In this document: positions 2,352 to 28,334 of the stretch, one piece after another
How the letters are laid out: every line of letters begins with the position of its first letter
How positions within the stretch are numbered: position 1 is the stretch's first letter
NCBI GenBank assembly: GCA_030017555.1
Contig: JASEIC010000001.1
Location: 2,571-66,570, forward strand
Reading direction: 5' to 3'
Length of the DNA: 64,000 nt
Source of the DNA: Patescibacteria group bacterium
GTDB lineage: Bacteria > Patescibacteriota > Minisyncoccia > UBA6257 > GWB1-50-10
The notes under the pieces: model-generated
Database searches by the model: none
What the model saw: the letters and a program-made list of their open reading frames with translations, nothing else
Told to the model about the DNA's origin: nothing
Program-made: the position numbers and the translations under genes

Positions 2352-2356
2352 ATTCT

Positions 2357-2941
2357 CTATCTTACTAATAATAACTCACTTAAAGGAATTTTTGTACGGC
2401 AGTTTGCGCATAAATAAGAATGATCAATTAACGAAAAATAACTTATTTCCTTATCACCGCAGTTTTCGCATTTAGCTGCTTTCGGATCATAACCAAAGAT
2501 TTTAAGAAAAAAACCAAAATCAATAAATGCCTTTTTAAAAACCCTGATAAGCGAATGCCACAAATTGAGATCTGAAACATGAAAAGGCGCGAAAATCTTG
2601 ACAATAAAAGCTAATTCCAAAGCCCGCCTTAAACTGCCCCGATTTTGTCTAAGCAATGAAAACCGGTTTTCGGTCAAAGCGTCGGTTATGGTAAATCCCT
2701 CCTTTTTTACCAATCGTACAGTCACTAAATTCAAAACATCAAGATGGGGAGAAAATTTCGAGAGCGGCTTTCGCCCCGCAATAACCTTAGCCGTAATCCG
2801 GCCGAAATCTTTTGTATAAAGTTGAACCTCTCGATCTGTTTCCCGATATGGTTTAATACCCAAAACAATAGCTTCGGTTATATAATCTTTCACAAAATAA
2901 AAAAAATAACTAATAAATAAACAAGCTCCAGTAAGTATCAA
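2357..2941 (-). CDS. recO: DNA repair protein RecO. The true start is probably an internal GTG/TTG near 2893, because the annotated 5' end overlaps the upstream gene.
   Basis: RecO-like N-terminal OB region (GIKPYRETDREVQLYTKDFGRITAKVIAGRK...). C-terminal CxxC...CxxC zinc motif (CENCGDK...CANCRTK). Confidence 0.65.
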   Translation of the reverse strand: MILTGACLFISYFFYFVKDYITEAIVLGIKPYRETDREVQLYTKDFGRITAKVIAGRKPLSKFSPHLDVLNLVTVRLVKKEGFTITDALTENRFSLLRQNRGSLRRALELAFIVKIFAPFHVSDLNLWHSLIRVFKKAFIDFGFFLKIFGYDPKAAKCENCGDKEISYFSLIDHSYLCANCRTKIPLSELLLVR

Positions 2942-3314
2942 GATTATAAATACCGCCGCCGGTAGTCATGAGCAAAAGCGCCGCGCCAGCGATTAAAAGA
3001 TCAAGCTCATAACCATGAATAAAACCTTTTTTCCGGTTGACTTTTAAAATAGCGATTAAAAAACGCGCGAAAACAAGAAAAGCGAAAACTTGAGTCAAGA
3101 ACCCGATGATTAAAGCAACGCCGCCGACAAATTCAACGAGCCCGACAATTGTCCCCCAAAACATACCCGGTTTAAATCCTGTTGTCGCAAAATTTTGGGC
3201 GTTAGTTTTTAAATCTTTTATTTTGGGCCAGCCGTAGACAACTAAAATAACGCCCAAAACAACGCGCAAAATCAAAATCGCCCAATCATTAAAAATCAAT
3301 AAAGGCTGAATCAT
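2910..3314 (-). CDS. DoxX-family small integral membrane protein
   Basis: 134 aa with four hydrophobic helices and a DoxX-like pattern (WAILILRVVLGVILVVYGWPKI...GFKPGMFWGTIVGLVEFVGGVALIIGF). Confidence 0.55.
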   Translation of the reverse strand: MIQPLLIFNDWAILILRVVLGVILVVYGWPKIKDLKTNAQNFATTGFKPGMFWGTIVGLVEFVGGVALIIGFLTQVFAFLVFARFLIAILKVNRKKGFIHGYELDLLIAGAALLLMTTGGGIYNLDTYWSLFIY

Positions 3315-3429
3315 AAAATAAATGAAACAAACGACCTTTCGTTTAAACTATTATAAACTAATTAATTAAAATAAAAAACACCGATGTTATTAAATTAATC
3401 ATCGGCATTTTTAAATATTTTTTAACTTT

Positions 3430-3615
3430 TTACTTTTTTACCAATTCTAATATCCGCTTCAATGTTTCGTTTAAATCATCTAATCCCGCCACAATATTCT
3501 TTAAATATTGGCACGTCAATCCAAAAAAAACAGCAACAACCAACGCTATCCCAGGATCAATGCTTGCAGTTATTAAACTAATTAAAATTATTAAAAAAAC
3601 AAGCCATAAAACCAT
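3430..3615 (-). CDS. Small membrane protein (hypothetical)
   Basis: 61 aa with two hydrophobic helices. Weak support. Confidence 0.3.
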   Translation of the reverse strand: MVLWLVFLIILISLITASIDPGIALVVAVFFGLTCQYLKNIVAGLDDLNETLKRILELVKK

Positions 3616-3815
3616 ATAAACCTTTCCGATTTTTATTTTATAGATTAAGCTTTTACCATTATATAAAGAATCTAAGAATATGTCAAATCAAAATAAAAAA
3701 GGCGCCGATATTCATTGTATCGGTCGCCTTGAAGCCTGTCGCGGCTTTTTGTTAACATATCAAACGGCGTAACCGTTCTCAAATATTAACCCGCCGGCTT
3801 GCAACTCATCGAAAA

Positions 3816-4232
3816 CTATTCCGCGTCTAAAAAATCAAGATCAACAAGTTTACGCTCTAACTTTTCGCCGTCTCTTCTTGTTTCGTAAACTTCACGATAA
3901 GAAATCGTAACCTGTTGTCCTTTTTTAAATCGTTCCCATAATCTTTTGGTTTTTCTCTGGTTTTTTTCAATTATAAAAATTGTGCCGTGCTTTTCGCATC
4001 TAAAAATAACTACGTATTTCTCCGCAACGGAGATACTTGTAAGTTGCAGACCTAACTTACCATCCATATCGATACTAGGACTTAAGCCACTACCATGACG
4101 CGAGGGCACATAAATAAGATCAACAATTTCTCCTTTTTCACGAAGAACTGGTGAGTATTCTTTCTCGGTCGTTACACAACCAGTAAAAACAGATAATACA
4201 AGAACTGTAAATAGAATGCCTACTATTTTCAT
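3816..4232 (-). CDS. Lipoprotein (hypothetical)
   Basis: Signal peptide with lipobox LSVFTGC. 138 aa. Confidence 0.5.
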   Translation of the reverse strand: MKIVGILFTVLVLSVFTGCVTTEKEYSPVLREKGEIVDLIYVPSRHGSGLSPSIDMDGKLGLQLTSISVAEKYVVIFRCEKHGTIFIIEKNQRKTKRLWERFKKGQQVTISYREVYETRRDGEKLERKLVDLDFLDAE

Positions 4233-4356
4233 ACATATTTCTCCTTACATGTCTTTTGAATAGAATTGAATTGTTAATTAAACTCATATAAGTATAGCAT
4301 ACTATAATGCTCATGTCAAGTTTCCAAAAAACGAGGAAAAATCTACTATATTTAAT

Positions 4357-5559
4357 ATGAAAATACTGGCGATTGAAACATCCTGTGATGAAACTGCTTT
4401 GGCTTATATTGAAGCAAGGGACGGAATTACAAAACCGCGATTTAAGATTTTAGAAAATCTTGTTTCATCGCAAATTAATATCCATCGGCCTTGGGGCGGC
4501 GTAGTGCCGAACCTTGCCAAACGCGAACACATAAAAAATCTGCCTTTAATTTTTAAAAAATTCTTTAAAAAACATAAACCGAAACCAAATCTCATGGCTG
4601 TAACCGTCGGGCCTGGACTTGAACCAGCTCTTTGGGCAGGAATTAATTTTGCTCTAACCATTCACAAAGATTATTTCTCGTCCGCCAGCCGGCGAATCCC
4701 GCTTGTCGGCGCAAACCACTTAGAAGGGCATCTTCATAGTTTTTTACTGCCAAAAACAACTGGCGAAGAAATTTTAAAGAAAAGAGGGTTAAAATTTATT
4801 TTTCCGGCGGTGGCGCTTGTGGTAAGCGGCGGGCACACGATTTTACTTTTAATGAAATCGCTCACTGATTGGAAAAAATTAGGCGAAACCCGAGACGATG
4901 CTGTTGGCGAAGCATTTGATAAAGTGGCGAAAATGCTAAATCTTCCTTATCCCGGCGGACCGGAAATCTCCCGTCTCGCTTTAACCGGCGATTCCAAAGC
5001 CATTAAATTCCCCCGCCCAATGATTAATTCGGAAAGTTATGATTTTAGTTTTTCGGGACTCAAAACATCCGTACTTTATTTTCTCAAAAACAATGAAGCT
5101 AAAATTGTTTTTGATATGGGCATGTCCAAAACGCGTTCAAAAATCAACGAACGAATAGAAAATTTACCGGGCGCCCGCGCGCGAAGCAAACAGGGCGGTA
5201 AATTTTCGTCTATGAGCGAGTTAGATTTTAACGCGCGTGGACTTGCAAATAAAAAAATAATTTTAGCTGACATAGCCGCAAGCTTTCAACAAGCCGCTAT
5301 TGATGCTTTGGTCAAAAAAACAATGCGCGCTGCCAATGAATTCAGGATAAAATCAATTCTTCTTTCTGGCGGCGTGGCTGCCAACAAACTACTCCGTGAA
5401 ACTTTGATAAAAGAAACCAAAAACAATAACTTAAACTTTTTTGTGCCGCCGATAAATTTTAACACTGACAATGCCGTCATGATCGCCGTCGCGGCGTATA
5501 TTAACTTTTTAAAAAACAAAAAATATCCGCTTCGTGCCAATGGAATTTTAAATTTATAA
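4357..5559 (+). CDS. tsaD: tRNA N6-adenosine threonylcarbamoyltransferase TsaD (Kae1/YgjD family) with a lineage-specific insertion
   Basis: MKILAIETSCDETALAYIE N-terminus, GANHLEGHL metal-binding motif, and C-terminal SGGVAANKLLRE. Confidence 0.85.
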   Translation: MKILAIETSCDETALAYIEARDGITKPRFKILENLVSSQINIHRPWGGVVPNLAKREHIKNLPLIFKKFFKKHKPKPNLMAVTVGPGLEPALWAGINFALTIHKDYFSSASRRIPLVGANHLEGHLHSFLLPKTTGEEILKKRGLKFIFPAVALVVSGGHTILLLMKSLTDWKKLGETRDDAVGEAFDKVAKMLNLPYPGGPEISRLALTGDSKAIKFPRPMINSESYDFSFSGLKTSVLYFLKNNEAKIVFDMGMSKTRSKINERIENLPGARARSKQGGKFSSMSELDFNARGLANKKIILADIAASFQQAAIDALVKKTMRAANEFRIKSILLSGGVAANKLLRETLIKETKNNNLNFFVPPINFNTDNAVMIAVAAYINFLKNKKYPLRANGILNL

Positions 5560-5562
5560 ATA

Positions 5563-5588
5563 AAAACCCTTCGAAATTTCGAAGGGTT
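5563..5588. terminator. Bidirectional intrinsic terminator (perfect palindrome aaacccttcgaaatttcgaagggttt) after tsaD
   Basis: 13+13 nt perfect palindrome flanked by A/T runs, between convergent genes. Confidence 0.6.
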
Positions 5589-5612
5589 TGATTTACATCT
5601 ATTAAATAAGGT

Positions 5613-5744
5613 TCACTGTCCGGGTTTTCTTCCGCACGTGAACGCAACGTACGGCACAATTATAAAAAGTACAAACGCCAAAGCCACAGCGATTAGGAAG
5701 AAAAACAGACTTAAAAACACGTGAAGTGGTTGAATAGTTTCCAT
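5613..5744 (-). CDS. 43-aa hydrophobic micro-protein (candidate)
   Basis: Minus-strand ORF METIQPLHVFLSLFFFLIAVALAFVLFIIVPYVAFTCGRKPGQ, preceded by a perfect SD AAGGAGGAAAC-ATG. Below the ORF-track size cutoff. Competes with track ORF 5602..5808 in another frame. Confidence 0.3.
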   Translation of the reverse strand: METIQPLHVFLSLFFFLIAVALAFVLFIIVPYVAFTCGRKPGQ

Positions 5745-5753
5745 GTTTCCTCC

Positions 5754-5945
5754 TTAAAAAATTTGCGATATAGAAAGAAAAAAACAAACCGTCGCACTGA
5801 TTATACAAATAATTGCTGGGGTTTTATAAATTTTTCCTTTCATATTTTTGATTGCCGCCAGAAAGAAAAAGAACGTAAGAATTCCAAAGCTGATTGCATA
5901 CATACTTTTTTCAAAAAGCTTTGGTATTGTCATTAAAATATCCAT
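5754..5945 (-). CDS. 63-aa two-helix small membrane protein (hypothetical)
   Basis: SD TAAGGAGTC directly upstream of the ATG at 5945. Hydrophobic. Confidence 0.35.
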   Translation of the reverse strand: MDILMTIPKLFEKSMYAISFGILTFFFFLAAIKNMKGKIYKTPAIICIISATVCFFLSISQIF

Positions 5946-6067
5946 TTGACTCCTTATTTTTTTATAGTTTTTTAATATTCTGTATTAATTATAGCATAAT
6001 GGTAATATTTGTCAATATCCTCTGTTTCCCTTTATTTTCTCACATTTTTTGACATATAATATATATA

Positions 6068-8167
6068 ATGTTTGATTCTCCCTACGACCCAAAAAAACAC
6101 GAAGAAAAAATCTACAAACTTTGGGAAAACTCGGGTTATTTTAACCCGGACAACTTAATCGGTAAAAAAACTTTTATTATTTACATGCCCTTACCCAACA
6201 TAACGGGCACGCTTCATATGGGCCACGCCCTTGATAATACTCTTCCCGATATTTTAATCCGCTATTACCGAATGAAAGGAATAAAAACCTTATGGCTTCC
6301 AGGCACAGATCATGCTGGTATTGCCACCCAATATGTCGTGGAAAAGGAACTTAAGAAAAAAGGAATTTCTCGATTTGAGCTTGGTCGAGAAAAATTTATT
6401 GAAAAAGTTTGGGAATGGAAAAAAGAATACGGCAATCTTATTTTGGAACAATTGAAAAAACTCGGTATTTCAGCTGATTGGTCGCGTGTGCGATTTACGA
6501 TGGATGAGGCCTATGCGCGGGACGTAAAACGCGCATTTATTCATTACTACAAAAAAGGCTGGCTTTATCGAGGTTTACGCACTGTAAATTGGTGTCCGCG
6601 TTGCGGCACAAGCCTTTCCGAGCTTGAGCTTGAATACAAAGACGAAGAAACAAAACTTTGGCACATAAAATATCCCGGCCGAAATGGCGATGTTACCGTA
6701 GTCACCACTCGACCCGAAACAATGTTGGGCGACACCGCAGTCGCGGTAAATCCAAGAGATGCGCGTTACAAAAAATTAATCGGCAAAACCGTTACCCTCC
6801 CGATTATGAATCGCGAAATACCAATTATTGAGGATGAAATTATTGATCAAAGTTTTGGCACGGGCGCAGTTAAAGTTACGCCCGCCCATGATATTGCTGA
6901 TTTCGAAATCAGCGAACGCCACAAACTTCCAATCATTCAAGTAATTGATGAACGCGGAAAAATGACAAAAGATGCGGGAAAATACGAAGGATTAAAAGCA
7001 ATCGAAGCGCGCACAAAAATCGTGGAAGAACTTACCAGGCTTGGACTTCTTTTAAAAACCGAAAAATATTCCCACCGAGTAACTGTTTGCTACCGTTGTA
7101 ATTCAACAATTGAACCAATTCCCTCTAAGCAATGGTTTTTGAAAATGAGTGAGCTTGCAAAGATGGCGCTTGAAGCGGTAAAAAGCGGGACCGTAAAAAT
7201 CCATCCCGAAAATTTTAAAAAGCCCTATTACGCGTGGCTCGAAAATATCCGCGACTGGACCGTATCGCGGCAGATTTGGTGGGGGCATCAACTGCCGGTG
7301 TGGTTTTGTAAAAATGACCCTGAAAAATTTGAAGTAAGCGAAGAAAAATCAAAAAAATGTTTATTCTGTAATAAATGCGAAATGGAACAATCGCCGGATA
7401 TACTGGACACCTGGTTTTCATCCGCTCTTTGGCCTTTTGCCGGATTTAGAGAAAAAGATCTTAAAAATTATTATCCCGGCGATTTAGTAATGAATGCTCG
7501 AGAAATTTTAAATCTTTGGGATGCCAGAATGATTTTTTCGGGATTAGAATTTAAAGGCGAAGTTCCTTTTAAAAACGTTTTAATTCACGGCACCATTCTT
7601 ACAAAAGACGGGAAACGCATGTCAAAAAGCTTGGGTACGGGCATTGATCCATTAAAATATATTGATCAATATGGCGCGGACGCAACTCGCTTTGCTGTTA
7701 TTTGGCAAGCAAATGGCCAGGATATTCGATGGGACGAAACAGCGGTTTTAGCCGGTCGAAAATTCACAAATAAAATTTGGAACGCGGCTCGCTTCGTAAT
7801 AGAAAAAACAAAAAATGTTAAAATAAAAAATAATGCGCCGAAAGCAAAAACTGAAGCCGACAAAAAAATTCTTGAATCTCTTTCGAATATAAAAAATAGC
7901 GTCGAAAAAGATATTGAAGACCTTGAATTCAACAAAGCCCTTCACAATTTTTACGATTTTTTTTGGCATGAATTCTGTGACGTCTATCTCGAAATATCAA
8001 AAAAACAATTTGAAAGCGAAAATAAAGAGTCGACCGTACAAATTTTAAACCGTATTTTAAGCGAATCGCTTAAACTTCTTCACCCTTTTATGCCTTTTAT
8101 CACTGAACAAATTTACCAAACACTTGAAGTAAAAAATAAAAAATTGCTCTTAATCGAACCATGGTAA
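6068..8167 (+). CDS. valS: Valyl-tRNA synthetase, short form lacking the long C-terminal coiled coil
   Basis: PNITGTLHMGHALDNTLPDILIRYYRMKG...GTDHAGIATQ (HIGH region). KMSKS motif (KRMSKSLGTGIDPL). 699 aa. Confidence 0.85.
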   Translation: MFDSPYDPKKHEEKIYKLWENSGYFNPDNLIGKKTFIIYMPLPNITGTLHMGHALDNTLPDILIRYYRMKGIKTLWLPGTDHAGIATQYVVEKELKKKGISRFELGREKFIEKVWEWKKEYGNLILEQLKKLGISADWSRVRFTMDEAYARDVKRAFIHYYKKGWLYRGLRTVNWCPRCGTSLSELELEYKDEETKLWHIKYPGRNGDVTVVTTRPETMLGDTAVAVNPRDARYKKLIGKTVTLPIMNREIPIIEDEIIDQSFGTGAVKVTPAHDIADFEISERHKLPIIQVIDERGKMTKDAGKYEGLKAIEARTKIVEELTRLGLLLKTEKYSHRVTVCYRCNSTIEPIPSKQWFLKMSELAKMALEAVKSGTVKIHPENFKKPYYAWLENIRDWTVSRQIWWGHQLPVWFCKNDPEKFEVSEEKSKKCLFCNKCEMEQSPDILDTWFSSALWPFAGFREKDLKNYYPGDLVMNAREILNLWDARMIFSGLEFKGEVPFKNVLIHGTILTKDGKRMSKSLGTGIDPLKYIDQYGADATRFAVIWQANGQDIRWDETAVLAGRKFTNKIWNAARFVIEKTKNVKIKNNAPKAKTEADKKILESLSNIKNSVEKDIEDLEFNKALHNFYDFFWHEFCDVYLEISKKQFESENKESTVQILNRILSESLKLLHPFMPFITEQIYQTLEVKNKKLLLIEPW

Positions 8168-8883
8168 TCACTACGATTCCTATCATTATTGTCGCGATAG
8201 TTGCGGCGCTTGCGCCCGCGCTCATTTGGTTTATATTACTTTCTAAAAAAGATATTCACCCGGAGCCAAAACGACTTATTATTTACACTTTTAATTTCGG
8301 CATAATGATAAGTCTTGCCGTACTCGCATTTCAAATCCTTTTCCGAAGCATTGCAGGCATACCAACCAGCAACTTAATTAGTATTATTAGCTTGGCGTTT
8401 ATCGAAGAAACATTTAAATTCTTATCGGCTTTTTGGGCAGTTCATAAAGATCCGGAATTTGATGAACCAATTGATGCCATGATTTATACAATAGTTGCCG
8501 CGCTTGGTTTTGCCACGGTTGAAAACTTTTTTATCATTCTAAATATTCCCAACATAACTGACATAATTGCCTCTTCTCCGCTTATTTTAAAAACAATTTC
8601 TCTTAGATTTGCCGGCGCGACCCTGCTTCATGTTCTGGCATCGGCAATCGTGGGTTATTATTGGGCGCGTGGTCGGAAAAAGAACAAAATCATAAAACCA
8701 ATAATGCTAGGCCTCATTATTGCCACAATTGTTCACTCTGTTTTCAACTTATTAATATACAAATTCCAATCCATAAACTTGTGGTATTCAAGCTTATTTT
8801 TAGTTATCGTGGTTTTCTTTGTATTAATAGATTTTGATAAACTCAAGAACGAAAAACCTTTTAATAATAAACCTTGCGGGTAG
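8161..8883 (+). CDS. PrsW-like intramembrane protease (putative); start overlaps the valS stop
   Basis: Polytopic membrane protein with conserved acidic and His motifs in TM segments (FIEETFKF, TVENFF, LLHVLASAIVGYYWA). Confidence 0.45.
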   Translation: MVITTIPIIIVAIVAALAPALIWFILLSKKDIHPEPKRLIIYTFNFGIMISLAVLAFQILFRSIAGIPTSNLISIISLAFIEETFKFLSAFWAVHKDPEFDEPIDAMIYTIVAALGFATVENFFIILNIPNITDIIASSPLILKTISLRFAGATLLHVLASAIVGYYWARGRKKNKIIKPIMLGLIIATIVHSVFNLLIYKFQSINLWYSSLFLVIVVFFVLIDFDKLKNEKPFNNKPCG

Positions 8884-8919
8884 CCGATTAAAATCACTTA
8901 TGTTATACTTTTAATTAAT

Positions 8920-9360
8920 ATGAAAGAAGAAAATAAAAATGATATCTTTGTAGAACTTGCTAAAGTCAAAAACAAACCGATGCCTATTAAAGTTGAAAAT
9001 GACGAAGATAATGACATTACCGAAGAAGAAGGACAGCTTACTGTTGATGTTTATCAAGATCAGGACAATATCATTGTTCAATCAACAGTCGCGGGCATAA
9101 AACCGGATGATATCGACATCAGCATTACCAATGAATCGGTAATTATTCGCGGTAAAAGAGAAAAAGAAGAAGCAATCGAAGATAAAGATTATTTTTACCA
9201 AGAGTGTTTCTGGGGCGCTTTTTCCCGTTCAATAATCTTGCCGCAGGAAATTGACCCGGACAAATCCCAAGCTTCAATGAAAAACGGCGTTCTGACCGTT
9301 AAAATGCCGAAGTTAAATCGCGCTAAAACAAAAACATTAAAAGTAAAAACTGATTTATAA
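8920..9360 (+). CDS. Hsp20 / alpha-crystallin family small heat-shock protein
   Basis: LTVDVYQDQDNIIVQSTVAGIKPDDIDISITNESVIIRGKRE...NGVLTVKMPK alpha-crystallin domain. Confidence 0.8.
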   Translation: MKEENKNDIFVELAKVKNKPMPIKVENDEDNDITEEEGQLTVDVYQDQDNIIVQSTVAGIKPDDIDISITNESVIIRGKREKEEAIEDKDYFYQECFWGAFSRSIILPQEIDPDKSQASMKNGVLTVKMPKLNRAKTKTLKVKTDL

Positions 9361-9378
9361 ATACCGGCTATAAAATTA

Positions 9379-9409
9379 CCCCGCTTATCCATGGATAAGC
9401 GGGGTTTTT
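9379..9409 (+). terminator. Intrinsic terminator after hsp20 (ccccgcttatccatggataagcggggttttt)
   Basis: 12-bp perfect stem followed by a T-run. Confidence 0.65.
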
Positions 9410-9572
9410 CTGAAAGATTGCGCGATTTCTTCAACGGTTTTTAGGCTTGACTTAATAATTGATATATAGCAATATTAAGCTTGAACTATAATTTCGTGTT
9501 CTTTAAAATAATTCACTAAATAAAAGGAGTTCTTACGAAAAATATTTTATTAGACAATGAGATTTCGAAACT

Positions 9573-9872
9573 ATGAAAAATATTTCATTCTATGCGTTAT
9601 TTATTATTGCGCTCGCTGCTTTTGGCCTTATTAATGGCTGCGACAATCAAACTACCAGAAAATTAGCAATTGAAAATTCTAACAGCATTGAACCGCAAAA
9701 CTTCGGCAACGGGGTTTATTATTTCAATTGTTACGCGGAAACTTTCGGTGCAAGCATTTCAAAATTTATCGAACGAGAACATAAATATTTGAAAATTATT
9801 GCTGTTGCTCCGAACGGTTTAAGCGAAGAGGGCACAACTCTTGGTTACTGGGTGATTTGCGAAGAAAAATAA
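9573..9872 (+). CDS. Small secreted protein or lipoprotein (hypothetical)
   Basis: Signal peptide ending ...LINGC. 99 aa. Confidence 0.4.
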   Translation: MKNISFYALFIIALAAFGLINGCDNQTTRKLAIENSNSIEPQNFGNGVYYFNCYAETFGASISKFIEREHKYLKIIAVAPNGLSEEGTTLGYWVICEEK

Positions 9873-9923
9873 AGTTTATTAAATCCCGCCTACCTATAGA
9901 TAGGCGGGAATATTTTTATAAAA

Positions 9924-10412
9924 TTAATGATGCAGTAAATTTAAATTTTTAAATTGTTCCAAAAGTCTTGGATAAAACGAATTCATACTCCGGATTGCAA
10001 TCAATTCCGCTTCATACGGATCAATTTCTTTTAAAAGCTCGGCCACCGCCAGCATAATTGCTTCATCTTCTTCTTCTTTTTTAAAACCTGAAAATGAAAA
10101 TATATAGCGTCTACCGCGTATGGCGCCGCCATATTTTTGTTCGGCTTCGTTTTTACTTTCAAAACTGCTTTTATGTTCTTGATGCTCAAAAAGTCTTTGA
10201 GATTTTTCAATTGAAAGTTCGTGATATTTTCCTGCTTTTTCAGCCAAAACCTCACCAACCATTGAAACAAGAATAGGACGACCCAAATCAATATCAAAAA
10301 GGCAAAAATATCCGCCTTTCCGCTTTTCGCCCGCAAACTTACTTGATTCTTTAACAACTTTTATAACAAGCCCGAGCATTGTCCAAATATGTTCGTTTCT
10401 GCAATTTTCCAT
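9924..10412 (-). CDS. Hypothetical protein
   Basis: 162 aa ORF with host-like composition. No recognised motifs. Confidence 0.4.
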   Translation of the reverse strand: MENCRNEHIWTMLGLVIKVVKESSKFAGEKRKGGYFCLFDIDLGRPILVSMVGEVLAEKAGKYHELSIEKSQRLFEHQEHKSSFESKNEAEQKYGGAIRGRRYIFSFSGFKKEEEDEAIMLAVAELLKEIDPYEAELIAIRSMNSFYPRLLEQFKNLNLLHH

Positions 10413-10534
10413 ACAACTTCCTTTCTTTAACTTTAACTGAATGATTTATTAAAAACTACTGTATTTAAAATATACTTAAAATAAAAAAATGTCAATAGTT
10501 AAAAACCCTCATACAAACGAGGGGCTTGGAGGAT

Positions 10535-10954
10535 TTATACTTGCGTTGATCGCCGCCGTTTCCGCGGGAGAAACTTTTTCTCCCACTTGCCCCGCAAATC
10601 AAGCGATTCAATTTCCTGATCTCTAAACCAACGAGCGATTAACGCCGCGTTTCTCGGCCGCTTTCTGCTCACTTTCCCGAAAAATATGGTCAGGCGCACT
10701 TTTCCCCGAAGAAACGGATGCGCGCTCTTAAACTCTCGCGCCCCTACGGTTATGGATTTTACTTTTCTTAATATCCGAACATCATAGCCGGATTCTTCTT
10801 TTGCTTCCCGCTCTGCCGCACCTTTCAAGCTTTCTCCTTTTTCAACGAAACCCAAAGGGAGCGACCAAAGGTTTTTCGCCGCTTTATGTTTTTCCCGCAC
10901 AAGAAGTATTTTGCCGTTTTTTCGGACTAGTACGCCACTGAACTCAAATTTCAT
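10535..10954 (-). CDS. NUDIX hydrolase
   Basis: Nudix box LPLGFVEKGESLKGAAEREAKEESGY. 139 aa. Confidence 0.75.
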   Translation of the reverse strand: MKFEFSGVLVRKNGKILLVREKHKAAKNLWSLPLGFVEKGESLKGAAEREAKEESGYDVRILRKVKSITVGAREFKSAHPFLRGKVRLTIFFGKVSRKRPRNAALIARWFRDQEIESLDLRGKWEKKFLPRKRRRSTQV

Positions 10955-12266: not shown

Positions 12267-12439
12267 GCTAATTATTTATATTTAATTTTTGGCCTTTACC
12301 CCAAACCAAAATAAATTGGCGTATGGGGTTTTATTTAGAAATGAACCGCTCTTGAGCGGAGCGGCAATTCAGTGTTATTAGTATAGCAAATCATTTTTAA
12401 AAGTCAAATCTCTTATATACTAACACTTTTCGCCTGGTA

Positions 12440-12467
12440 TTGACAAATTATTTCAATCTGCTATAAT
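12440..12467 (+). promoter_or_regulatory. Consensus sigma70-type promoter TTGACA-N16-TATAAT, with the -10 embedded in the 18-bp palindrome ctgctataattatagcag (12458..12475)
   Basis: Exact TTGACA at 12440-12445 and TATAAT at 12462-12467, upstream of ORF 12525. The same module is duplicated at 27178-27214 on the other strand. Confidence 0.55.
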
Positions 12468-12524
12468 TATAGCAGTTTTTAAACAATTAATCCACTAACC
12501 AGCGGAAAAGAAAAGAGATTTAGA

Positions 12525-12827
12525 ATGATTAAAGAAAACAGCGACTTTATTTTAGCTTATTTTAAAGATGACCATGGCAGGATTTTAAGAGTGCGCATCC
12601 ATAAGCCTAATATGCTTATAAGTGTATCAGTTTTTAATGAAAAACCGCCGAGGAAAAAAGGTCCGCGAATTCGAGATATGGTTCATGTTTATTTCCCGAA
12701 AGCAACTTTTGAGGAAGTAAAAAAAGATCCTGGAATGGAACTTGGCACATTCGAAATTTTAGAAAAAGAAGCGAAAAAATGCTCAATTACCCGTAGGACA
12801 AAACGCGCCAGAAAATTTCCAGTATAA
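12525..12827 (+). CDS. Hypothetical 100-aa protein with its own consensus promoter and strong terminator
   Basis: ORF between the promoter above and hairpin terminator 12838..12885 (aaatccctcatcctttt...aaaaggatgagggattt + T-run). Confidence 0.45.
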   Translation: MIKENSDFILAYFKDDHGRILRVRIHKPNMLISVSVFNEKPPRKKGPRIRDMVHVYFPKATFEEVKKDPGMELGTFEILEKEAKKCSITRRTKRARKFPV

Positions 12828-23139: not shown

Positions 23140-23154
23140 GAAAATTTTTGTAAG

Positions 23155-23226
23155 TGGGCACTGAGGGGATTGAACCCCCGACCTACTCGGTGTAAACGAG
23201 TCGCTCTACCACTGAGCTAAGTGCCC
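23155..23226 (-). tRNA. tRNA-Val (anticodon UAC); no CCA encoded
   Basis: Reverse complement gggcacttagctcagtggtagagcgactcgtttacaccgagtaggtcgggggttcaatcccctcagtgccca folds as a cloverleaf with anticodon loop ttTACac. Confidence 0.85.
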
Positions 23227-23237
23227 TCAAATCTAAC

Positions 23238-23280
23238 GGGGTGAATAAACTGAACGCTCTAATCACTGAGCTATGCGCCC
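23238..23280 (-). pseudogene. Orphan tRNA 5'-half fragment: acceptor 5' strand, D-arm and start of anticodon stem, with no 3' partner
   Basis: Reverse complement gggcgcatagctcagtgattagagcgttcag... has a perfect acceptor/D-arm but no complementary anticodon stem, T-arm or acceptor 3' strand before tRNA-Val begins. Confidence 0.5.
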
Positions 23281-23286
23281 AAGCTT

Positions 23287-23362
23287 TGGTGGGCGCGGAA
23301 GGGATCGAACCTTCGACTTCTGACTTATAAGGTCAGCGTTCTGCCACTGAACTACGCGCCCC
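23287..23362 (-). tRNA. tRNA-Ile with genomically encoded UAU anticodon; CCA encoded
   Basis: Reverse complement gggcgcgtagttcagtggcagaacgctgaccttataagtcagaagtcgaaggttcgatcccttccgcgcccacca. Anticodon stem ctgac/gtcag with loop ctTATaa. Confidence 0.8.
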
Positions 23363-23374
23363 CAAACATTCTAG

Positions 23375-25252
23375 TTATTTAATAACTATCGGTTTAAGAT
23401 TAAAACTTTTTATAATTTTGTAAAACTCTTCATGTTCTAAAGTTTCTTTTTCAATCAAGATTTTAGCAATTCTATCAAGTGTTTCTTTTCGAGTTTCAAT
23501 TATTTTCTTAGCCGTATTTAAAGCTTTATTTATAAGACTTTTTACTTCTTTATCTATTTCCGCGCCAATTTCTTCAGAATAATCCTTTTCAGTAGAAATC
23601 TCGCGGCCTAAGAAAATAAGCTCTTGGGTTTTACCAAAAGACCTTGGACCTAATTTTTCATTCATTCCGTATTGAGTAATTAATCGATGAGCTAATTCAG
23701 TCGCTTGCCGAATATCACTTGAAGAACCGGTGGTAATATCTTTAAAAATTAAAAGTTCCGCCGCGTAACCGCCAAACGAAACCGCAAGATCTGTTAAAAA
23801 TTGAGACTTGGTTCTTAACCGCCGCTCTTCAATTGGAAGTTTAATAGTATAACCGCCGGCAATACCGCGACTAACAATTGAGACTTTATGAATCGGATCG
23901 GCTTCTTTTAATGACGCCGCAACCAACGCATGGCCTGCTTCGTGATAAGCGGTAATTTCTTTTTCTTTTGGTGAAATAATTCTGCTTTTTCTAGCAGGAC
24001 CTAAAAGCACTTTTTCAATAGAAGTTAAAATATCATCTTGAGCAATGATTTTGCGATTATGCCTTGCCGCCATAATTGCGGCTTCATTCAGTAAATTAGC
24101 GAGATCAGCGCCGGCAAAACCCGGCGTTCTTACGGCGACAGTTTTTAAATCGGTATTTTTATCCAAATTTTTCCCGCGACTGTGAATTTTTAAAATTTCC
24201 TCCCGGTCATTTATATCCGGCATATCAAGAATAACTCTTCGATCAAATCGGCCGGGACGCAAAAGCGCTTGATCTAAAATATCAGCCCGATTTGTCGCAG
24301 CTACAACAATAACATTTGTATCCCGTTCAAAACCGTCCATTTCCACCAAAATTTGATTTAGGGTTTGCTCCCTTTCGTCATGCCCGCCACCCAAACCAGC
24401 GCCACGCTCACGCCCGACCGCATCAATCTCATCAATAAAAACAATGGAAGGCGCGGCCCGCTTTGCGGTTTGAAACAAATCTCTTACCCGGGATGCGCCA
24501 ACGCCAACAAACATTTCCACAAACTCTGACGCGGAAATATGGAAAAATGGAACATTTGATTCGCCAGCGACCGCTCGCGCAAGAAGAGTTTTGCCTGTAC
24601 CTGGTGGGCCCATTAAAAGCACGCCACGGGGAATTCGAGCGCCGATTTCCAAAAACTTTTTTGGATTTTTTAAAAAATCCACAACTTCTTCTAATTCTTC
24701 TTTTGATTCCCTAAGCCCGGCCACGTCTTTAAAAGTTACCTTATCGCGCGATTGAGCAAAAAGACGAAGATTAACTTTACCAAAAGAAAAAGCTTGATTA
24801 ACGCCGGTTTTTGCCTGACGGAAAATCCACCAAAAAAGAGCGACCAAAATAATAATTGGCAAAAGAGAAGGAATAAGAATGCCTAACCAATATTTAATAC
24901 CGCTTTCGTCTTCGATTTTGTAAGAAACTTTTTGGAGCGCTTTTTCGTCAACGCCATAGTTTTTCAAAGTTTCCGTAAGCGAACTTTCGGCTTCTTTCCG
25001 AGAAATAGCATTAGTGCCGTCTTGAAGCAAAACCTTAACATCAGAACCGCCAACTGTAATATTTTTTACTTCACCAGCGTTAATCTTTTCGGCAACCTGA
25101 TCTAAAGTAAGTATCTGCGCGTCCGGCGAGCTAGATTCAAAAAGAAACGAAAAAAGAAGAGTAATGGAAAAAAGGACAATAAACGCCCAAAAGAAATTTT
25201 TGCCTAAATTTTTCATCCTTAAAATATTACAGGAATTTAAAACGAAAATCAA
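23375..25252 (-). CDS. ftsH: ATP-dependent zinc metalloprotease FtsH
   Basis: Walker [17 protein letters not shown] region, and zinc motif HEAGHA. Confidence 0.95.
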
Positions 25253-25267
25253 TTTAAAATAAAAAAC

Positions 25268-25289
25268 CGCTCCGAGTCTGGACTCGGAG
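25268..25289 (-). terminator. Intrinsic terminator for the minus-strand gene 25306..25974 (gctccgagtc tg gactcggagc + T-run on the minus strand)
   Basis: Perfect 10-bp stem. The A-run on the plus strand gives a U-run on the minus strand. Confidence 0.6.
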
Positions 25290-25305
25290 CGAGATGATTA
25301 TAATT

Positions 25306-25974
25306 TTAAAATTGAAGAATTATTCCCCTGCAATACGCTTCAGCAATTCTGATTATCTTGTTTTTAATAGTAAATTCCGTATCTTTTTCATTTACAATTA
25401 ATGCGGGAATTTTATGGCCAAATTGACGCGCGTGCTCTTTTAATCCCTCGAATGAACTTTTTACCTGAATCGGTATTTCTTTTTGTTCTTCTTTGGAAAT
25501 AAATAAAATATTAAGATCAATACCATCATATCGGTCTTGATTTTTTGTGGACAGCCAAACATCCCTCACTGGTGAATTGCCAATCATATTTTTTGCTGTT
25601 GCAAAAACCATATCTTCATGCTGCCAACCTTTTTTACGAGCGTTAATTTCCCTTAAAATTGTCTCCGTCAAATCTTTAAAATCAGGAACTTCTTTTAAAA
25701 AAATTTGGCCGTGATAAGCCGATTCTCTGTGCCGCCAATCCTTTACTGGTTCAATGAATTCAATTTTTAAACGCGGTTTGTCTTTTCTTATTTTAAGAAT
25801 AAATTCAATTAGTCTTGCTTCTACTTTTCCTTCTTTGTAACCTTCAATTACATTATTGTCCCGTAAATCTTTTAAGACTTGTCGAATTAAACTTTTGCTC
25901 CAGCTAATTACTCTTGATCGCAGTTTGGTTTTTTTCATTTTCAGCACCGTCCTTTTCTTTAATTGACTGCTCAA
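25306..25974 (-). CDS. Hypothetical protein, possible PD-(D/E)xK-like nuclease fold (weak)
   Basis: 222 aa. Segment YDGIDLNILFISKEEQKEIPIQVKSS loosely resembles D...(E/Q)xK nuclease motifs. The overlap with the next gene makes the exact start uncertain. Confidence 0.4.
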   Translation of the reverse strand: MSSQLKKRTVLKMKKTKLRSRVISWSKSLIRQVLKDLRDNNVIEGYKEGKVEARLIEFILKIRKDKPRLKIEFIEPVKDWRHRESAYHGQIFLKEVPDFKDLTETILREINARKKGWQHEDMVFATAKNMIGNSPVRDVWLSTKNQDRYDGIDLNILFISKEEQKEIPIQVKSSFEGLKEHARQFGHKIPALIVNEKDTEFTIKNKIIRIAEAYCRGIILQF

Positions 25975-26215
25975 TCACGTGTTTTACGTTATCGAAATTA
26001 ATCGGGAAAAAAGAATCAAAATTAATAACAATCGGACTTTTATTATCAGCGCGAATTATTCGAGCTTTTATTTTAAAAATCTCTTTGGTTGATGACTGGA
26101 TTACTGAAAAACTTTCAATACCAAACATACCTCTTTTTTTTAAACTGCAAAGAGCTGATTTAATGGTAGAAATTCGAACGTTTAATTCATTAAAGCTAAT
26201 TAGTGGTTTTTTCAC
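25904..26215 (-). CDS. Hypothetical 103-aa protein; overlaps the downstream gene by 35-71 nt
   Basis: ORF only. No motifs. Confidence 0.35.
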   Translation of the reverse strand: MKKPLISFNELNVRISTIKSALCSLKKRGMFGIESFSVIQSSTKEIFKIKARIIRADNKSPIVINFDSFFPINFDNVKHVIEQSIKEKDGAENEKNQTAIKSN

Positions 26216-26351
26216 TCTGTTTCCTTATTTAGTTATCAAATTTAGCTAAAGTAAAACATAACACTAACTAGAAAATAATGCAAGGTGTTATAAAAATGAA
26301 AAGCCCCGCAAGATTTTTAGTTCTGGGGGCTTAAATATTACTTTAAATTAT

Positions 26352-27128
26352 TTAGACGGCTGTCGGCTGGGCAGAAATCCCTTTTCGAGTCGCATTCACC
26401 ATATCCCAATAAGCATTTTTTTCGGCTAAATCAGTGATCGCGTAGTGCGGCGGGCACTCTTCGTAAAAGCAGTTATGGCTTGCTTTAAACCATGCCTGTT
26501 CTGCGGCTAGCGTAAAATTCTTTTCTGCTATTTTACGCATAATGTGTTCGGGCGGAGAATTGCCATCAGCGATCCAAAAGAATGCTTCGTTCGTCCACTT
26601 AATAGTTGGCGTTTCTTCATGAAACTCAATCGCGGTTTTCGTAACTCGGAAGTCAACTGGCAGCTTCTTCGCAAGAAGGTAGAAACTATCGCTTTCCGGC
26701 ACAATGCTATATGCGATGATAGTCCCAAAATCGCGAAGCGCGCTCGCTTCCACGACATAAAGCACATCGTGGACAGTACGAAATCCAGCAATTGGACCGT
26801 TGGTCCACTCAACTGGCAACTTTTGACCAAGTCGGTTACAGATAATCTTCCCACAATTCGGTTCGCTAATTTCTACCGCTTGAAGTTGGAAGAAAAACTT
26901 CAAACCCTGAGGAATTTCAACTAACGGAACGATCTTATAAATCTCTTCACCCGTCTTTTCGGTAAAGTCATCTTCAAGACTACAGAGAATTTGTGTCCGA
27001 GGCACATTTTTTCCCCCTTGCCGAACAAACATCACTTGTTTATTTTTCTTGTTTAAGGCAAGTTCTCGAAATTGCCCGCGATGACCATTGATCATCGCAA
27101 AAACTTCAACGTTGTTTAATTTAGTCAT
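26352..27128 (-). CDS. Hypothetical 258-aa protein encoded by a GC-rich compositional outlier gene; monocistronic with its own consensus promoter and terminator
   Basis: Visibly higher G+C than its neighbours, with overlapping alternative-frame ORFs. SD AGGAG upstream of the ATG. Promoter at 27186-27214(-). Hairpin terminator at ~26295-26330. Confidence 0.55.
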   Translation of the reverse strand: MTKLNNVEVFAMINGHRGQFRELALNKKNKQVMFVRQGGKNVPRTQILCSLEDDFTEKTGEEIYKIVPLVEIPQGLKFFFQLQAVEISEPNCGKIICNRLGQKLPVEWTNGPIAGFRTVHDVLYVVEASALRDFGTIIAYSIVPESDSFYLLAKKLPVDFRVTKTAIEFHEETPTIKWTNEAFFWIADGNSPPEHIMRKIAEKNFTLAAEQAWFKASHNCFYEECPPHYAITDLAEKNAYWDMVNATRKGISAQPTAV

Positions 27129-27185
27129 TTTAAAATCTCCTATTAAATTGTTAAAAAATAATTATTGAATTATAAAAACTGCTAT

Positions 27186-27214
27186 AATTATAGCAGTCCT
27201 TGTTTCGTTTGTCA
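27186..27214 (-). promoter_or_regulatory. Minus-strand consensus promoter TTGACA-N17-TATAAT with the same 18-bp palindromic -10 module (27178..27195) as the promoter at 12440
   Basis: Reverse complement reads ggtattgacaaacgaaacaaggactgctataattatagcagttttta. Shares the identical blocks GGTATTGACAA and CTGCTATAATTATAGCAGTTTTTA with the 12.4 kb site. Confidence 0.55.
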
Positions 27215-27245
27215 ATACCGAATAAGCCTTTATTTTACTAAGTTT

Positions 27246-28334
27246 TTACCCTTTAAATTTCAAAATAATGCGTTTTTCCTCAGGTTTTATACCTTCAATT
27301 ACAAATTGATATTCTTTACCCTGAACAATCTGTTTTTTCATTTCTTCAACACTGCCAAATTCAGTAACGCTTAATTGTCCCTGAAGCTCATTGCCTAAAT
27401 CAATAATCGCGCCAAATGGATTAAAACTATAAACCTTTCCTTTTGCTTCTTGACCTTTTTTATAATGCTCGCCGAAAGTGAGCCACGGATCAGAAACGAG
27501 GACCTTAAGAGAAAGCGAAATTTTACCATCTTTAATTTCCGTAATTTTAACTTTTACCACATCATCAACTTTTACTATTTCTTTCGGATTTTCGATTATC
27601 CGGTGACTTAATTCCGAAATATGGATTAAGCCTTCAACCGCGGGATTATCCGTAAACCTTACAAAAACTCCAAAATCAGCAACGCTTGAAACAATACCTT
27701 CCACAATCTGACCTACTGAATAATTTTTGACTAATTCTTTTGTTGAAATTTCAGTTGCCTCTCTTTCAGAAACAATAAGTTTGTTGTTTCTGGGATTTGC
27801 TTCAATTATTTTTACGGTTAATTCCTGGCCAACCAGAAGCTCGAGAGCCTGAGAAAAACCCGTTTTATTATCAACTGCCGTTTTTGGATAATGTTCGGTT
27901 GATAATTGGGAAACCGGCAAAAACGCCTGAAGACCGCTAATAACTCCAGTAAGTCCGCCTTTGTTAAAAGCTAAAAATTTAACTTTAATTGGTTCGTCTT
28001 TTTCTTTTATTTCTTGAACTTCAGCCCAAGCTCTTTGTTTGCCGGCTTCAGAAAGAGAAAGCTCAACAAAACCTTCTTTATTATCAACGGTAATAACTTT
28101 AGCATGAACAATATCGCCGACTTTTAAATTTTTCACGGCTTCCTTGGCATTTTGAACTTCGGCTCGATAAACCGCGCCTGTGCCAAATCTACCCAAATCA
28201 ACCATAAGCATATTGGATCGATTCTCCAAAACTCGTCCTTCCACTAAATCTCCTGTTTTAAAAAGCGAAAAAAGTCCAGGCTCGAATTTAATAAGCTGGG
28301 AAATTAGCGCGTTGTTATTTTTATTACTATTCAT
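27246..28334 (-). CDS. rpsA: 30S ribosomal protein S1 (short form with four S1 domains)
   Basis: Repeated S1 OB-fold repeats (GDLVEGRVL..., GDIVHAKVI..., GQELTVKII..., GQIVEGIVS...). Confidence 0.75.
   Translation of the reverse strand: MNSNKNNNALISQLIKFEPGLFSLFKTGDLVEGRVLENRSNMLMVDLGRFGTGAVYRAEVQNAKEAVKNLKVGDIVHAKVITVDNKEGFVELSLSEAGKQRAWAEVQEIKEKDEPIKVKFLAFNKGGLTGVISGLQAFLPVSQLSTEHYPKTAVDNKTGFSQALELLVGQELTVKIIEANPRNNKLIVSEREATEISTKELVKNYSVGQIVEGIVSSVADFGVFVRFTDNPAVEGLIHISELSHRIIENPKEIVKVDDVVKVKITEIKDGKISLSLKVLVSDPWLTFGEHYKKGQEAKGKVYSFNPFGAIIDLGNELQGQLSVTEFGSVEEMKKQIVQGKEYQFVIEGIKPEEKRIILKFKG

Follow-up and report, generated by a model that had tools for sequence, protein, structure and literature searches.

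A fast-diverging, GC-rich orphan gene upstream of ftsH is probably resident in Patescibacteria

Around half of the genes in genomes of the candidate phyla radiation (CPR), or Patescibacteria, lack a known function, with few leads as to which of them matter. Three kinds of described system come closest to the gene reported here. The protease FtsH has partners and substrates that include HflK/HflC, YccA, lambda CII and CIII, and substrates of the LpxC type, whose C-terminal tails are non-polar. At some conserved loci, allelic cassettes are hypervariable: pilin, antigen and specificity genes, for instance, are exchanged by recombination between conserved flanks. Short Cys/His motifs that bind zinc are found in zinc knuckles and, as the ZAS motif (Hx3Cx2C), in anti-sigma factors. 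Here we analyse gene X, an open reading frame (ORF) at 26352..27128 on the minus strand of a 64,000-nucleotide stretch (the window; G+C content (GC) 37.6%) of contig JASEIC010000001.1, part of a metagenome-assembled Patescibacteria genome. X starts with ATG, encodes a predicted soluble protein of 258 amino acids (aa), stands in the source annotation as 'hypothetical protein QMD65_00175' and lies among neighbours that we label S1, A, B and ftsH. An initial annotation of the window had grouped X with A and B as an accessory patch beside a tRNA cluster, in a position typical of acquired defence or toxin cargo.

X resembles each of these systems in part. As might be expected of an FtsH partner or substrate, it adjoins ftsH, or ftsH past A–B, in every context found, and the small non-polar C-terminal ends of several family members resemble known C-terminal degrons; it differs in having its own promoter and terminator and in lacking any likeness of sequence or fold to SPFH-domain proteins or the other listed partners. 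Assignment as an SPFH (Band 7)/HflKC-type modulator found no Pfam match, no transmembrane segment and no fold match. With hypervariable cassettes X shares a sharp drop in identity at the borders of the coding sequence, flanks of about 80% identity and synonymous divergence deeper than that of its neighbours, but the protein is predicted to be cytoplasmic rather than surface-exposed, the comparison covers only two or three close genomes, and no silent copies, invertase, retroelement or repeats were found near the gene. With zinc knuckles and the ZAS motif it shares four closely spaced Cys/His residues, [H/C]xCx4Cx2H, and an invariant distal Cys, whereas no Pfam zinc-finger model accommodates their spacing and context and the motif is modelled between helices of a larger alpha+beta domain.

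Gene family and locus

A word-seeded homology search with X returned only X itself, and the same kind of search with the family profile found at least three members; phmmer against 1.84 billion cluster representatives yielded eight relatives (31–49% identity) and a metagenome scan one more. As sampled by these searches, the family is very small, with about ten members, and appears restricted to Patescibacteria. An exact-sequence look-up of the window's X, S1 and FtsH for further samples of the same species found none on record, and a search of the literature yielded nothing of relevance.

Related genomes, fetched through the neighbouring S1 gene, place X in a conserved setting. In the window, X lies between an S1-domain protein gene (27246..28334, minus strand) and A, B and ftsH (23375..25216, minus strand), and the order S1–X–A–B–ftsH is the same in L001, in L010 and in L002, which comes from Jorgensenbacteria and whose FtsH is 78% identical to that of the window. 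Beyond ftsH, tRNA-Ile, tRNA-Val, orf180 and an RNase H-like gene follow in L001 as they do in the window. In L012, S1 and X are followed by the contig end. The S1 gene is the conserved upstream neighbour in this part of the family (subgroup 1); the more distant members in L011, L013 and L015 (subgroup 2) have neither S1 nor A–B, and their upstream neighbours differ. X follows a PolX gene on the opposite strand in both L011 and L017; ftsH comes directly after X in L011, and the L017 contig stops just past X. In L013 the order is X, ftsH, tRNA, lon, and in L015 X is followed by ftsH. Thus ftsH, the conserved downstream anchor of the family, lies on the same strand downstream of X in 7/7 contexts with downstream sequence, either directly or with A–B between, and FtsH identity over these seven contexts is 57–92%.

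More distant lineages have the S1–ftsH arrangement without X: the slot holds rpsO and comM in L004 and a 539-aa orphan in L008, and is empty in L006. The idea that a GC-rich orphan always occupies the slot in this clade was rejected on the evidence of L004 and L006; in L003 and L008, moreover, the genes in the slot have the composition of their own GC-rich hosts. In L013, the stretch at 1147-10806 carries ftsH, lon and then a prkA–DUF444–spoVR (yeaG/yeaH/ycgB-like) stress cluster, so that X would head a proteostasis and stress neighbourhood there.

These comparisons bear directly on whether X was acquired. X, A and B are all orphans and the slot is variable in distant lineages, which bears out the notion of an accessory patch in that limited sense and would fit horizontally acquired defence, toxin or immunity cargo beside the tRNA cluster, as would the atypical codon usage and third-position G+C content (GC3) of X and its very fast evolution, with a deeper synonymous divergence that suggests allele import. 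Synteny, however, speaks against recent acquisition: orthologues of X sit at the same locus in L001, L010 and L002, every close relative found, an outcome that the initial annotation had itself named as speaking against its proposal. The DNA flanking X is 80–90% identical to that of L001 (the one pair aligned at the DNA level), and the X–ftsH linkage persists down to 57% FtsH identity.

Nor does the site look like one of integration. The window's tRNA-Ile(UAU) and tRNA-Val(UAC) genes (23154..23361, minus strand) lie downstream of ftsH, with the same pair in L001; across the clade a tRNA (Ile where typed) stands directly 3′ of ftsH, with a Val tRNA nearby in three loci. Because this ftsH–tRNA junction is itself conserved, the tRNA marks no integration site. 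No integrase or recombinase was found among the ORFs between 21 and 29.5 kilobases (kb), no direct repeats bound 25253-27245, and collections of phages, plasmids and IMG/VR contained no relatives. The window's X, A and B had no match in PADLOC-DB v2 at E values up to 1; nine X members gave one marginal match, to TmtA (E = 0.014), and four B members none, which leaves both families without a significant PADLOC match. The proposal of acquired cargo at a tRNA site was therefore not upheld; we regard it as quite unlikely, and it survives mainly for A–B. Taken together, these data indicate that X is very probably resident at this locus and vertically placed, as the local representative of a very small family confined to Patescibacteria.

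A 17-nucleotide (nt) tRNA 5′ fragment, GGGCGCATAGCTCAGTG (23264-23280, minus strand), lies about 2 kb from X–A–B in the 60 nt that separate tRNA-Val from tRNA-Ile; in L001, only 8 nt lie between the two. The fragment probably survives from a tRNA that was lost or rearranged.

Divergence of the coding sequence

Between the window and L001, amino-acid identity is 92% for FtsH, 88% for GyrA, 86% for S1, 77% for orf180, 62% for B and 58% for A, and falls to 31% for X. Over all family pairs the identity of X is 24–45%, regardless of host relatedness. A sliding DNA comparison of the same two genomes places the drop exactly between the start and stop codons of X: identity is about 0.8 through S1 and the intergenic promoter, 0.37–0.58 within the coding sequence, 0.73–0.83 at the X terminator and the A promoter, and 0.8–0.93 in ftsH. 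At four-fold degenerate sites, 11/38 match in X (0.29, roughly chance level) as compared with 408/749 (0.54) in the pooled neighbours (Fisher's exact test, P = 0.0024). Compared with its conserved regulatory flanks, the coding sequence of X changes at an extremely high rate.

Very low identity to the positional orthologue and a small family might be expected of a decaying or spurious ORF under relaxed constraint. However, X is more diverged than neighbouring synonymous sites, which neutral decay could not produce, so that relaxed constraint cannot explain the divergence. Furthermore, reading frames are uninterrupted in 10/10 members (P0008 and P0009 are cut 5′ by gene call or masking), the promoter, ribosome-binding site and terminator are conserved, Cys and His positions are invariant and the AlphaFold model of X is confident. 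Decay is effectively refuted and, in our estimation, barely credible.

We infer instead that the divergence arose through replacement by, or recombination with, older alleles, or through a locally raised mutation rate, in either case with or without diversifying selection. A sharply bounded divergence limited to the coding sequence between conserved regulatory flanks, an identity that does not follow host relatedness, and strong, constitutive-looking expression signals would also suit a resident conflict gene, for example a target or decoy in phage–host or symbiont–host interaction under diversifying or frequency-dependent selection, whose adjacency to ftsH would be incidental. Set against this, X lacks the signal peptide or transmembrane segment needed for surface exposure and matches no known defence or anti-defence domain; and because its synonymous sites are saturated, the ratio of nonsynonymous to synonymous substitution rates (dN/dS) is not estimable. 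We consider a conflict role of this kind unlikely.

Expression signals

The initial annotation had described X as an autonomous module with a consensus promoter, a Shine–Dalgarno sequence and a downstream hairpin, and all three were confirmed. The putative promoter (27187..27215, minus strand) comprises TTGACA, a 17-nt spacer and TGn-TATAAT and matches the sigma-70 consensus at 12/12 positions. The element is retained in L001, L010 and L002, where, as in the window, TTGACA-N17-CTGCTATAAT-TATAGCAGTTTTT is almost invariant upstream of X, and 12/12 consensus promoters also lie 5′ of the distant homologues in L011, L013 and L015. The Shine–Dalgarno sequence AGGAG (27137..27141, minus strand) is 8 nt 5′ of the ATG, and AAGGAG is invariant across five aligned X upstream regions. 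Downstream, a predicted intrinsic terminator (26289..26332, minus strand) consists of an AAGCCCC...GGGGCUU hairpin (26301-26332) and a U tract, with a folding energy of −13.4 kcal/mol; its stem is kept in four genomes, with one compensatory pair. Because the same signals recur among homologues, the autonomous-module architecture is real and ancestral to the family. Rfam models run on the window and eight loci detected tRNAs only; upstream of X they revealed neither a riboswitch nor a leader, and the long 5′ untranslated regions of subgroup 2 do not align.

A 20-base-pair (bp) perfect palindrome, ACTGCTATAATTATAGCAGT (27178..27197), overlaps the −10 box of X and is followed by T5. L001 and L002 carry it unchanged, and the copy in L010 differs by a single mismatch. 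It could be the terminator of S1, overlapping the X promoter, or an operator.

A second copy of this palindrome lies at 12457-12476, within a repeat of the whole promoter cassette: GGTATTGACAAA-N13/14-CTGCTATAAT.TATAGCAGTTTTTA occurs twice in the window, at 12437-12481 (plus strand) and 27173-27215 (minus strand), and its 16-mer core has two occurrences against 0.01 expected by chance. The copy at 12.4 kb precedes a basic 100-aa orphan ORF (12525-12827) that is unrelated to X and has its own hairpin terminator, and no co-directional upstream gene there would need termination. The duplicated cassette could represent a shared operator or regulon, or a terminator–promoter hybrid.

X is not unique in the strength of its promoter, as the window holds four perfect consensus promoters against 0.03 expected by chance. 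The other two (3658-3686 and 5988-6015, both minus strand) precede tiny ORFs for predicted membrane proteins, of 61 aa (3430-3615) and 63 aa (5754-5945), respectively. This genome appears to keep its consensus promoters for small orphan genes.

Predicted structure and metal site

The initial annotation had found no recognisable motifs in X, in agreement with the absence of any match in Pfam, NCBIfam, PHROGs, PADLOC or PDB sequences. No Pfam family was matched by more than one member when every member of the X, A and B families was searched, and profile and sequence searches of X and B against the PDB gave nothing below E = 0.18. AlphaFold2 run on a nine-sequence alignment gave a model of X with a predicted local distance difference test score (pLDDT) of 80.8 and a predicted template-modelling score (pTM) of 0.79; run on the single sequence, AlphaFold gave a pLDDT of 33, which is unusable. 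The former model has a domain of about 12 antiparallel beta strands (residues 7–178), packed against helices that follow at 194–218, 220–223 and 233–249. It has no match in the PDB or in BFVD, so that, as compared with these two collections, the family and its predicted fold match nothing known. An internal direct repeat in the gene (26653-26680 and 26809-26836, 52 codons apart) encodes KLPV(D/E)(F/W) twice and hints at duplication of a beta-hairpin unit.

The most conserved residues include a Cys/His cluster, which in X consists of C49 and H218-x-C220-x4-C225-x2-H228 (in the family, [H/C]xCx4Cx2H plus the distal Cys). Full-length members all have C49, C220, H228 and A230, with either H or C at position 218; C225 is also present in each of them, shifted by an insertion in P0005. 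Also invariant are E86, N91, L104, F116, L123, E145 and L151. The cluster probably binds a metal, most plausibly zinc. With a maximum 19-residue hydropathy of 1.19, X has no transmembrane segment, and the protein is predicted to be soluble and cytoplasmic.

The C-terminal regions vary. Most members have an acidic, proline-rich linker and then a lysine-rich tail, for example KKPAKGGKAKKAKAK, which the window copy (isoelectric point 6.3) and P0002 lack. Several subgroup-1 proteins end in small non-polar residues (PTAV, IAAA and VAAG), which, by analogy with FtsH substrates, hint at a possible degron.

Base composition

The initial annotation had singled out X as GC-rich, and this holds on calculation, although the shift is moderate in size. 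The GC of X is 0.440 as against 0.376 for the window, with values of 0.521, 0.363 and 0.436 at the first, second and third codon positions; its direct neighbours all lie below it (A 0.304, B 0.327, S1 0.362 and FtsH 0.394). The GC3 of X is 2.7 standard deviations (SD) above that of 41 other credible genes in the window and so not uniform with it, and exceeds by 0.098, also 2.7 SD, the value expected from its own amino acids and the codon usage of the window. Long alternative-frame ORFs on both strands, which the initial annotation had cited as evidence, are present within X (26528-26854, minus strand, and 26544-26924, plus strand) and are by-products of its GC richness. Only one gene in the window lies above X, a NUDIX hydrolase gene (10535-10954, minus strand) with a GC3 of 0.471, an observed minus expected value of +0.143 and an 11-nt overlap with the end of nusA.

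Codon choice in X departs from background in several ways. AAG (53% as against 11%), GGG (38% as against 9%) and AGC (56% as against 17%) are enriched, AGA and AGG are absent (0% as against 29%), ATA is depleted (5% as against 25%), and codons that end in a pyrimidine are shifted towards C (NNY to NNC) in ATC, AAC, TAC and TTC.

Comparison across the family argues against a foreign source. Homologues of X are GC-richer than their surroundings in 9/9 loci, in hosts of 35–49% GC, and their GC3 is at least 0.09 above that of the adjacent housekeeping gene in six of the nine. Because the raised GC recurs across homologues, it is not specific to a transfer into this genome and looks like a family trait rather than the scar of an import, which counts further against acquired cargo.

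An expression-based account of the same excess would make X an abundant protein that binds nucleic acids or is associated with the nucleoid or the ribosome, with its GC3 raised by selection for high expression. Perfect promoters and strong ribosome-binding sites in all scanned members, the lysine-rich, histone-H1-like tails of most members, the adjoining S1 gene and the shift to NNC codons are consistent with this. On the other hand, the window copy, with its isoelectric point of 6.3, and P0002 have no basic tail, the enrichment of G-ending and rare codons (GGG and AAG) is atypical for translational selection, the L001 homologue has the same promoter and no GC3 excess, and ribosomal and nucleoid proteins normally evolve slowly. 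We find this account improbable, to much the same degree as acquisition. Given the GGG and AAG enrichment and the L001 counter-example, we rejected an explanation of the GC3 excess by translational codon bias alone. GC-biased gene conversion at a recombining cassette would account for the excess.

Genes A and B

The two overlapping small genes reported by the initial annotation at 25306..26215 exist and are both orphans. A (25904..26215, minus strand) encodes 103 aa from a GTG start and has homologues only in L001, L010 and L002; B (25306..25938, minus strand) encodes 210 aa and overlaps the end of A by 35 nt. Each family has four known members, all at the S1–ftsH locus, and the two genes overlap or abut in 4/4 genomes. 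A putative promoter upstream of A (26241..26283, minus strand; TTGCAT, a 17-nt spacer and TGn-TATGTT) is followed by the palindrome TTTAGCTAAA (26241-26250), a candidate autoregulatory operator; promoter and palindrome are kept in all four genomes. A strong predicted intrinsic terminator follows B (25267..25292, minus strand; an 11-bp stem with seven GC pairs, then T6). Unlike X, A and B are AT-rich, as is the host. As X occurs without A–B in subgroup 2, the most fitting view of A–B is that of a separate module, which entered between X and ftsH in one sub-lineage.

It is for this module that acquired cargo retains most of its appeal, as A and B are translationally coupled and B carries a weak PD-(D/E)xK-like motif. 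Conserved in B are the motifs KGWxHE and GxD-x12-ExPxxVKSS, and the protein gives a weak match to DUF4365 (E = 0.087, well below the Pfam threshold). With the PD-(D/E)xK superfamily, which includes DUF4365, it shares GxD-x12-E-x-P-x-[QN]-V-K on predicted consecutive strands, but it has Q or N where the acidic residue of the canonical (D/E)xK stands, and it found no profile match in the PDB. That B is a PD-(D/E)xK-type nuclease with A as its small partner is a weak lead. The coupled two-gene architecture and the palindrome downstream of a putative −10 box would also fit a type II toxin–antitoxin system but are not specific to such systems, and neither A nor B had a significant match to toxin–antitoxin families in Pfam, NCBIfam, PHROGs, PADLOC or the PDB.

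Relation to FtsH

Because ftsH is the one invariant neighbour of X, the family may work with or under FtsH as a modulator, an adaptor or a substrate, a tentative reading that we think has a modest chance of being right. Several observations weigh against it and against parts of the wider explanation given below. The link to FtsH is one of adjacency, in perhaps four independent lineages, and conserved adjacency without a functional link does occur, as in tilS–hprT–ftsH of Bacillus. Co-transcription of X and ftsH is not required, as X has its own terminator, ftsH has its own promoter and A–B can intervene. The metal site is read from its motif alone, and structural relatives of X, themselves of unknown function, may exist in the AlphaFold database, given that the comparison covered the PDB and BFVD. 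The four-fold site comparison between the window and L010 is not significant (P = 0.22, with small counts). The L001 homologue, with its perfect promoter, shows no GC3 excess (0.312 as against 0.332 for FtsH), so no single cause fits the GC pattern.

A putative ftsH promoter (TTGATT, a 17-nt spacer and TAATAT, TATTAT or TAAAAT) was observed in three divergent genomes, at 25216-25250 (minus strand) in the window, 1106-1147 in L013 and 1228-1266 in L015. It ends 7–12 nt before the ftsH start codon in these three, which suggests that ftsH mRNA is leaderless or nearly so in these Patescibacteria.

Discussion

Our best explanation of the locus is that X is a resident gene of a family in which each unit is self-contained, with a perfect sigma-70 consensus promoter wherever upstream DNA was scanned, a strong ribosome-binding site and, in the cases examined, a terminator of its own. 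The A–B module would have been inserted between X and ftsH in the sub-lineage of the window. Alleles of X would be replaced or recombined between the conserved promoter and terminator, possibly with diversifying selection, and GC-biased gene conversion or expression-linked selection, rather than foreign origin, would lie behind the recurrent GC excess. The protein may be an abundant cytoplasmic metal-binding protein that acts with or under FtsH. We hold the statements on what X is, taken together, to be very probable; blended with the far more tentative functional proposal, they leave the explanation as a whole evenly balanced.

A bolder version, which we offer as speculation and would not expect to hold in full, is that the family is an undescribed one with a new fold, abundant and Cys/His metal-binding, that is tied genetically to FtsH, its coding cassette being swapped or diversified between conserved promoter and terminator 'handles', so that X would be a hypervariable cytoplasmic gene at a fixed locus, and that it possibly serves as an FtsH-directed regulator or decoy in conflict with phages or with the host.

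As a point of method, a GC-rich outlier with a private promoter beside tRNAs is not necessarily of horizontal origin, and the composition signal here travels with the X family. Among Patescibacteria genes without known function, this family offers a well-defined target: about ten members in some 15 billion proteins, with expression signals of consensus strength in each genome, a confidently predicted fold without a PDB match, turnover of the coding sequence that far outpaces the DNA around it and a fixed position upstream of the gene for an essential protease. If X modulates FtsH or is controlled by it, the family would represent a lineage-specific layer of proteostasis in ultra-small bacteria; a conflict role would instead make X a rare case of a hypervariable cytoplasmic cassette at a housekeeping locus.

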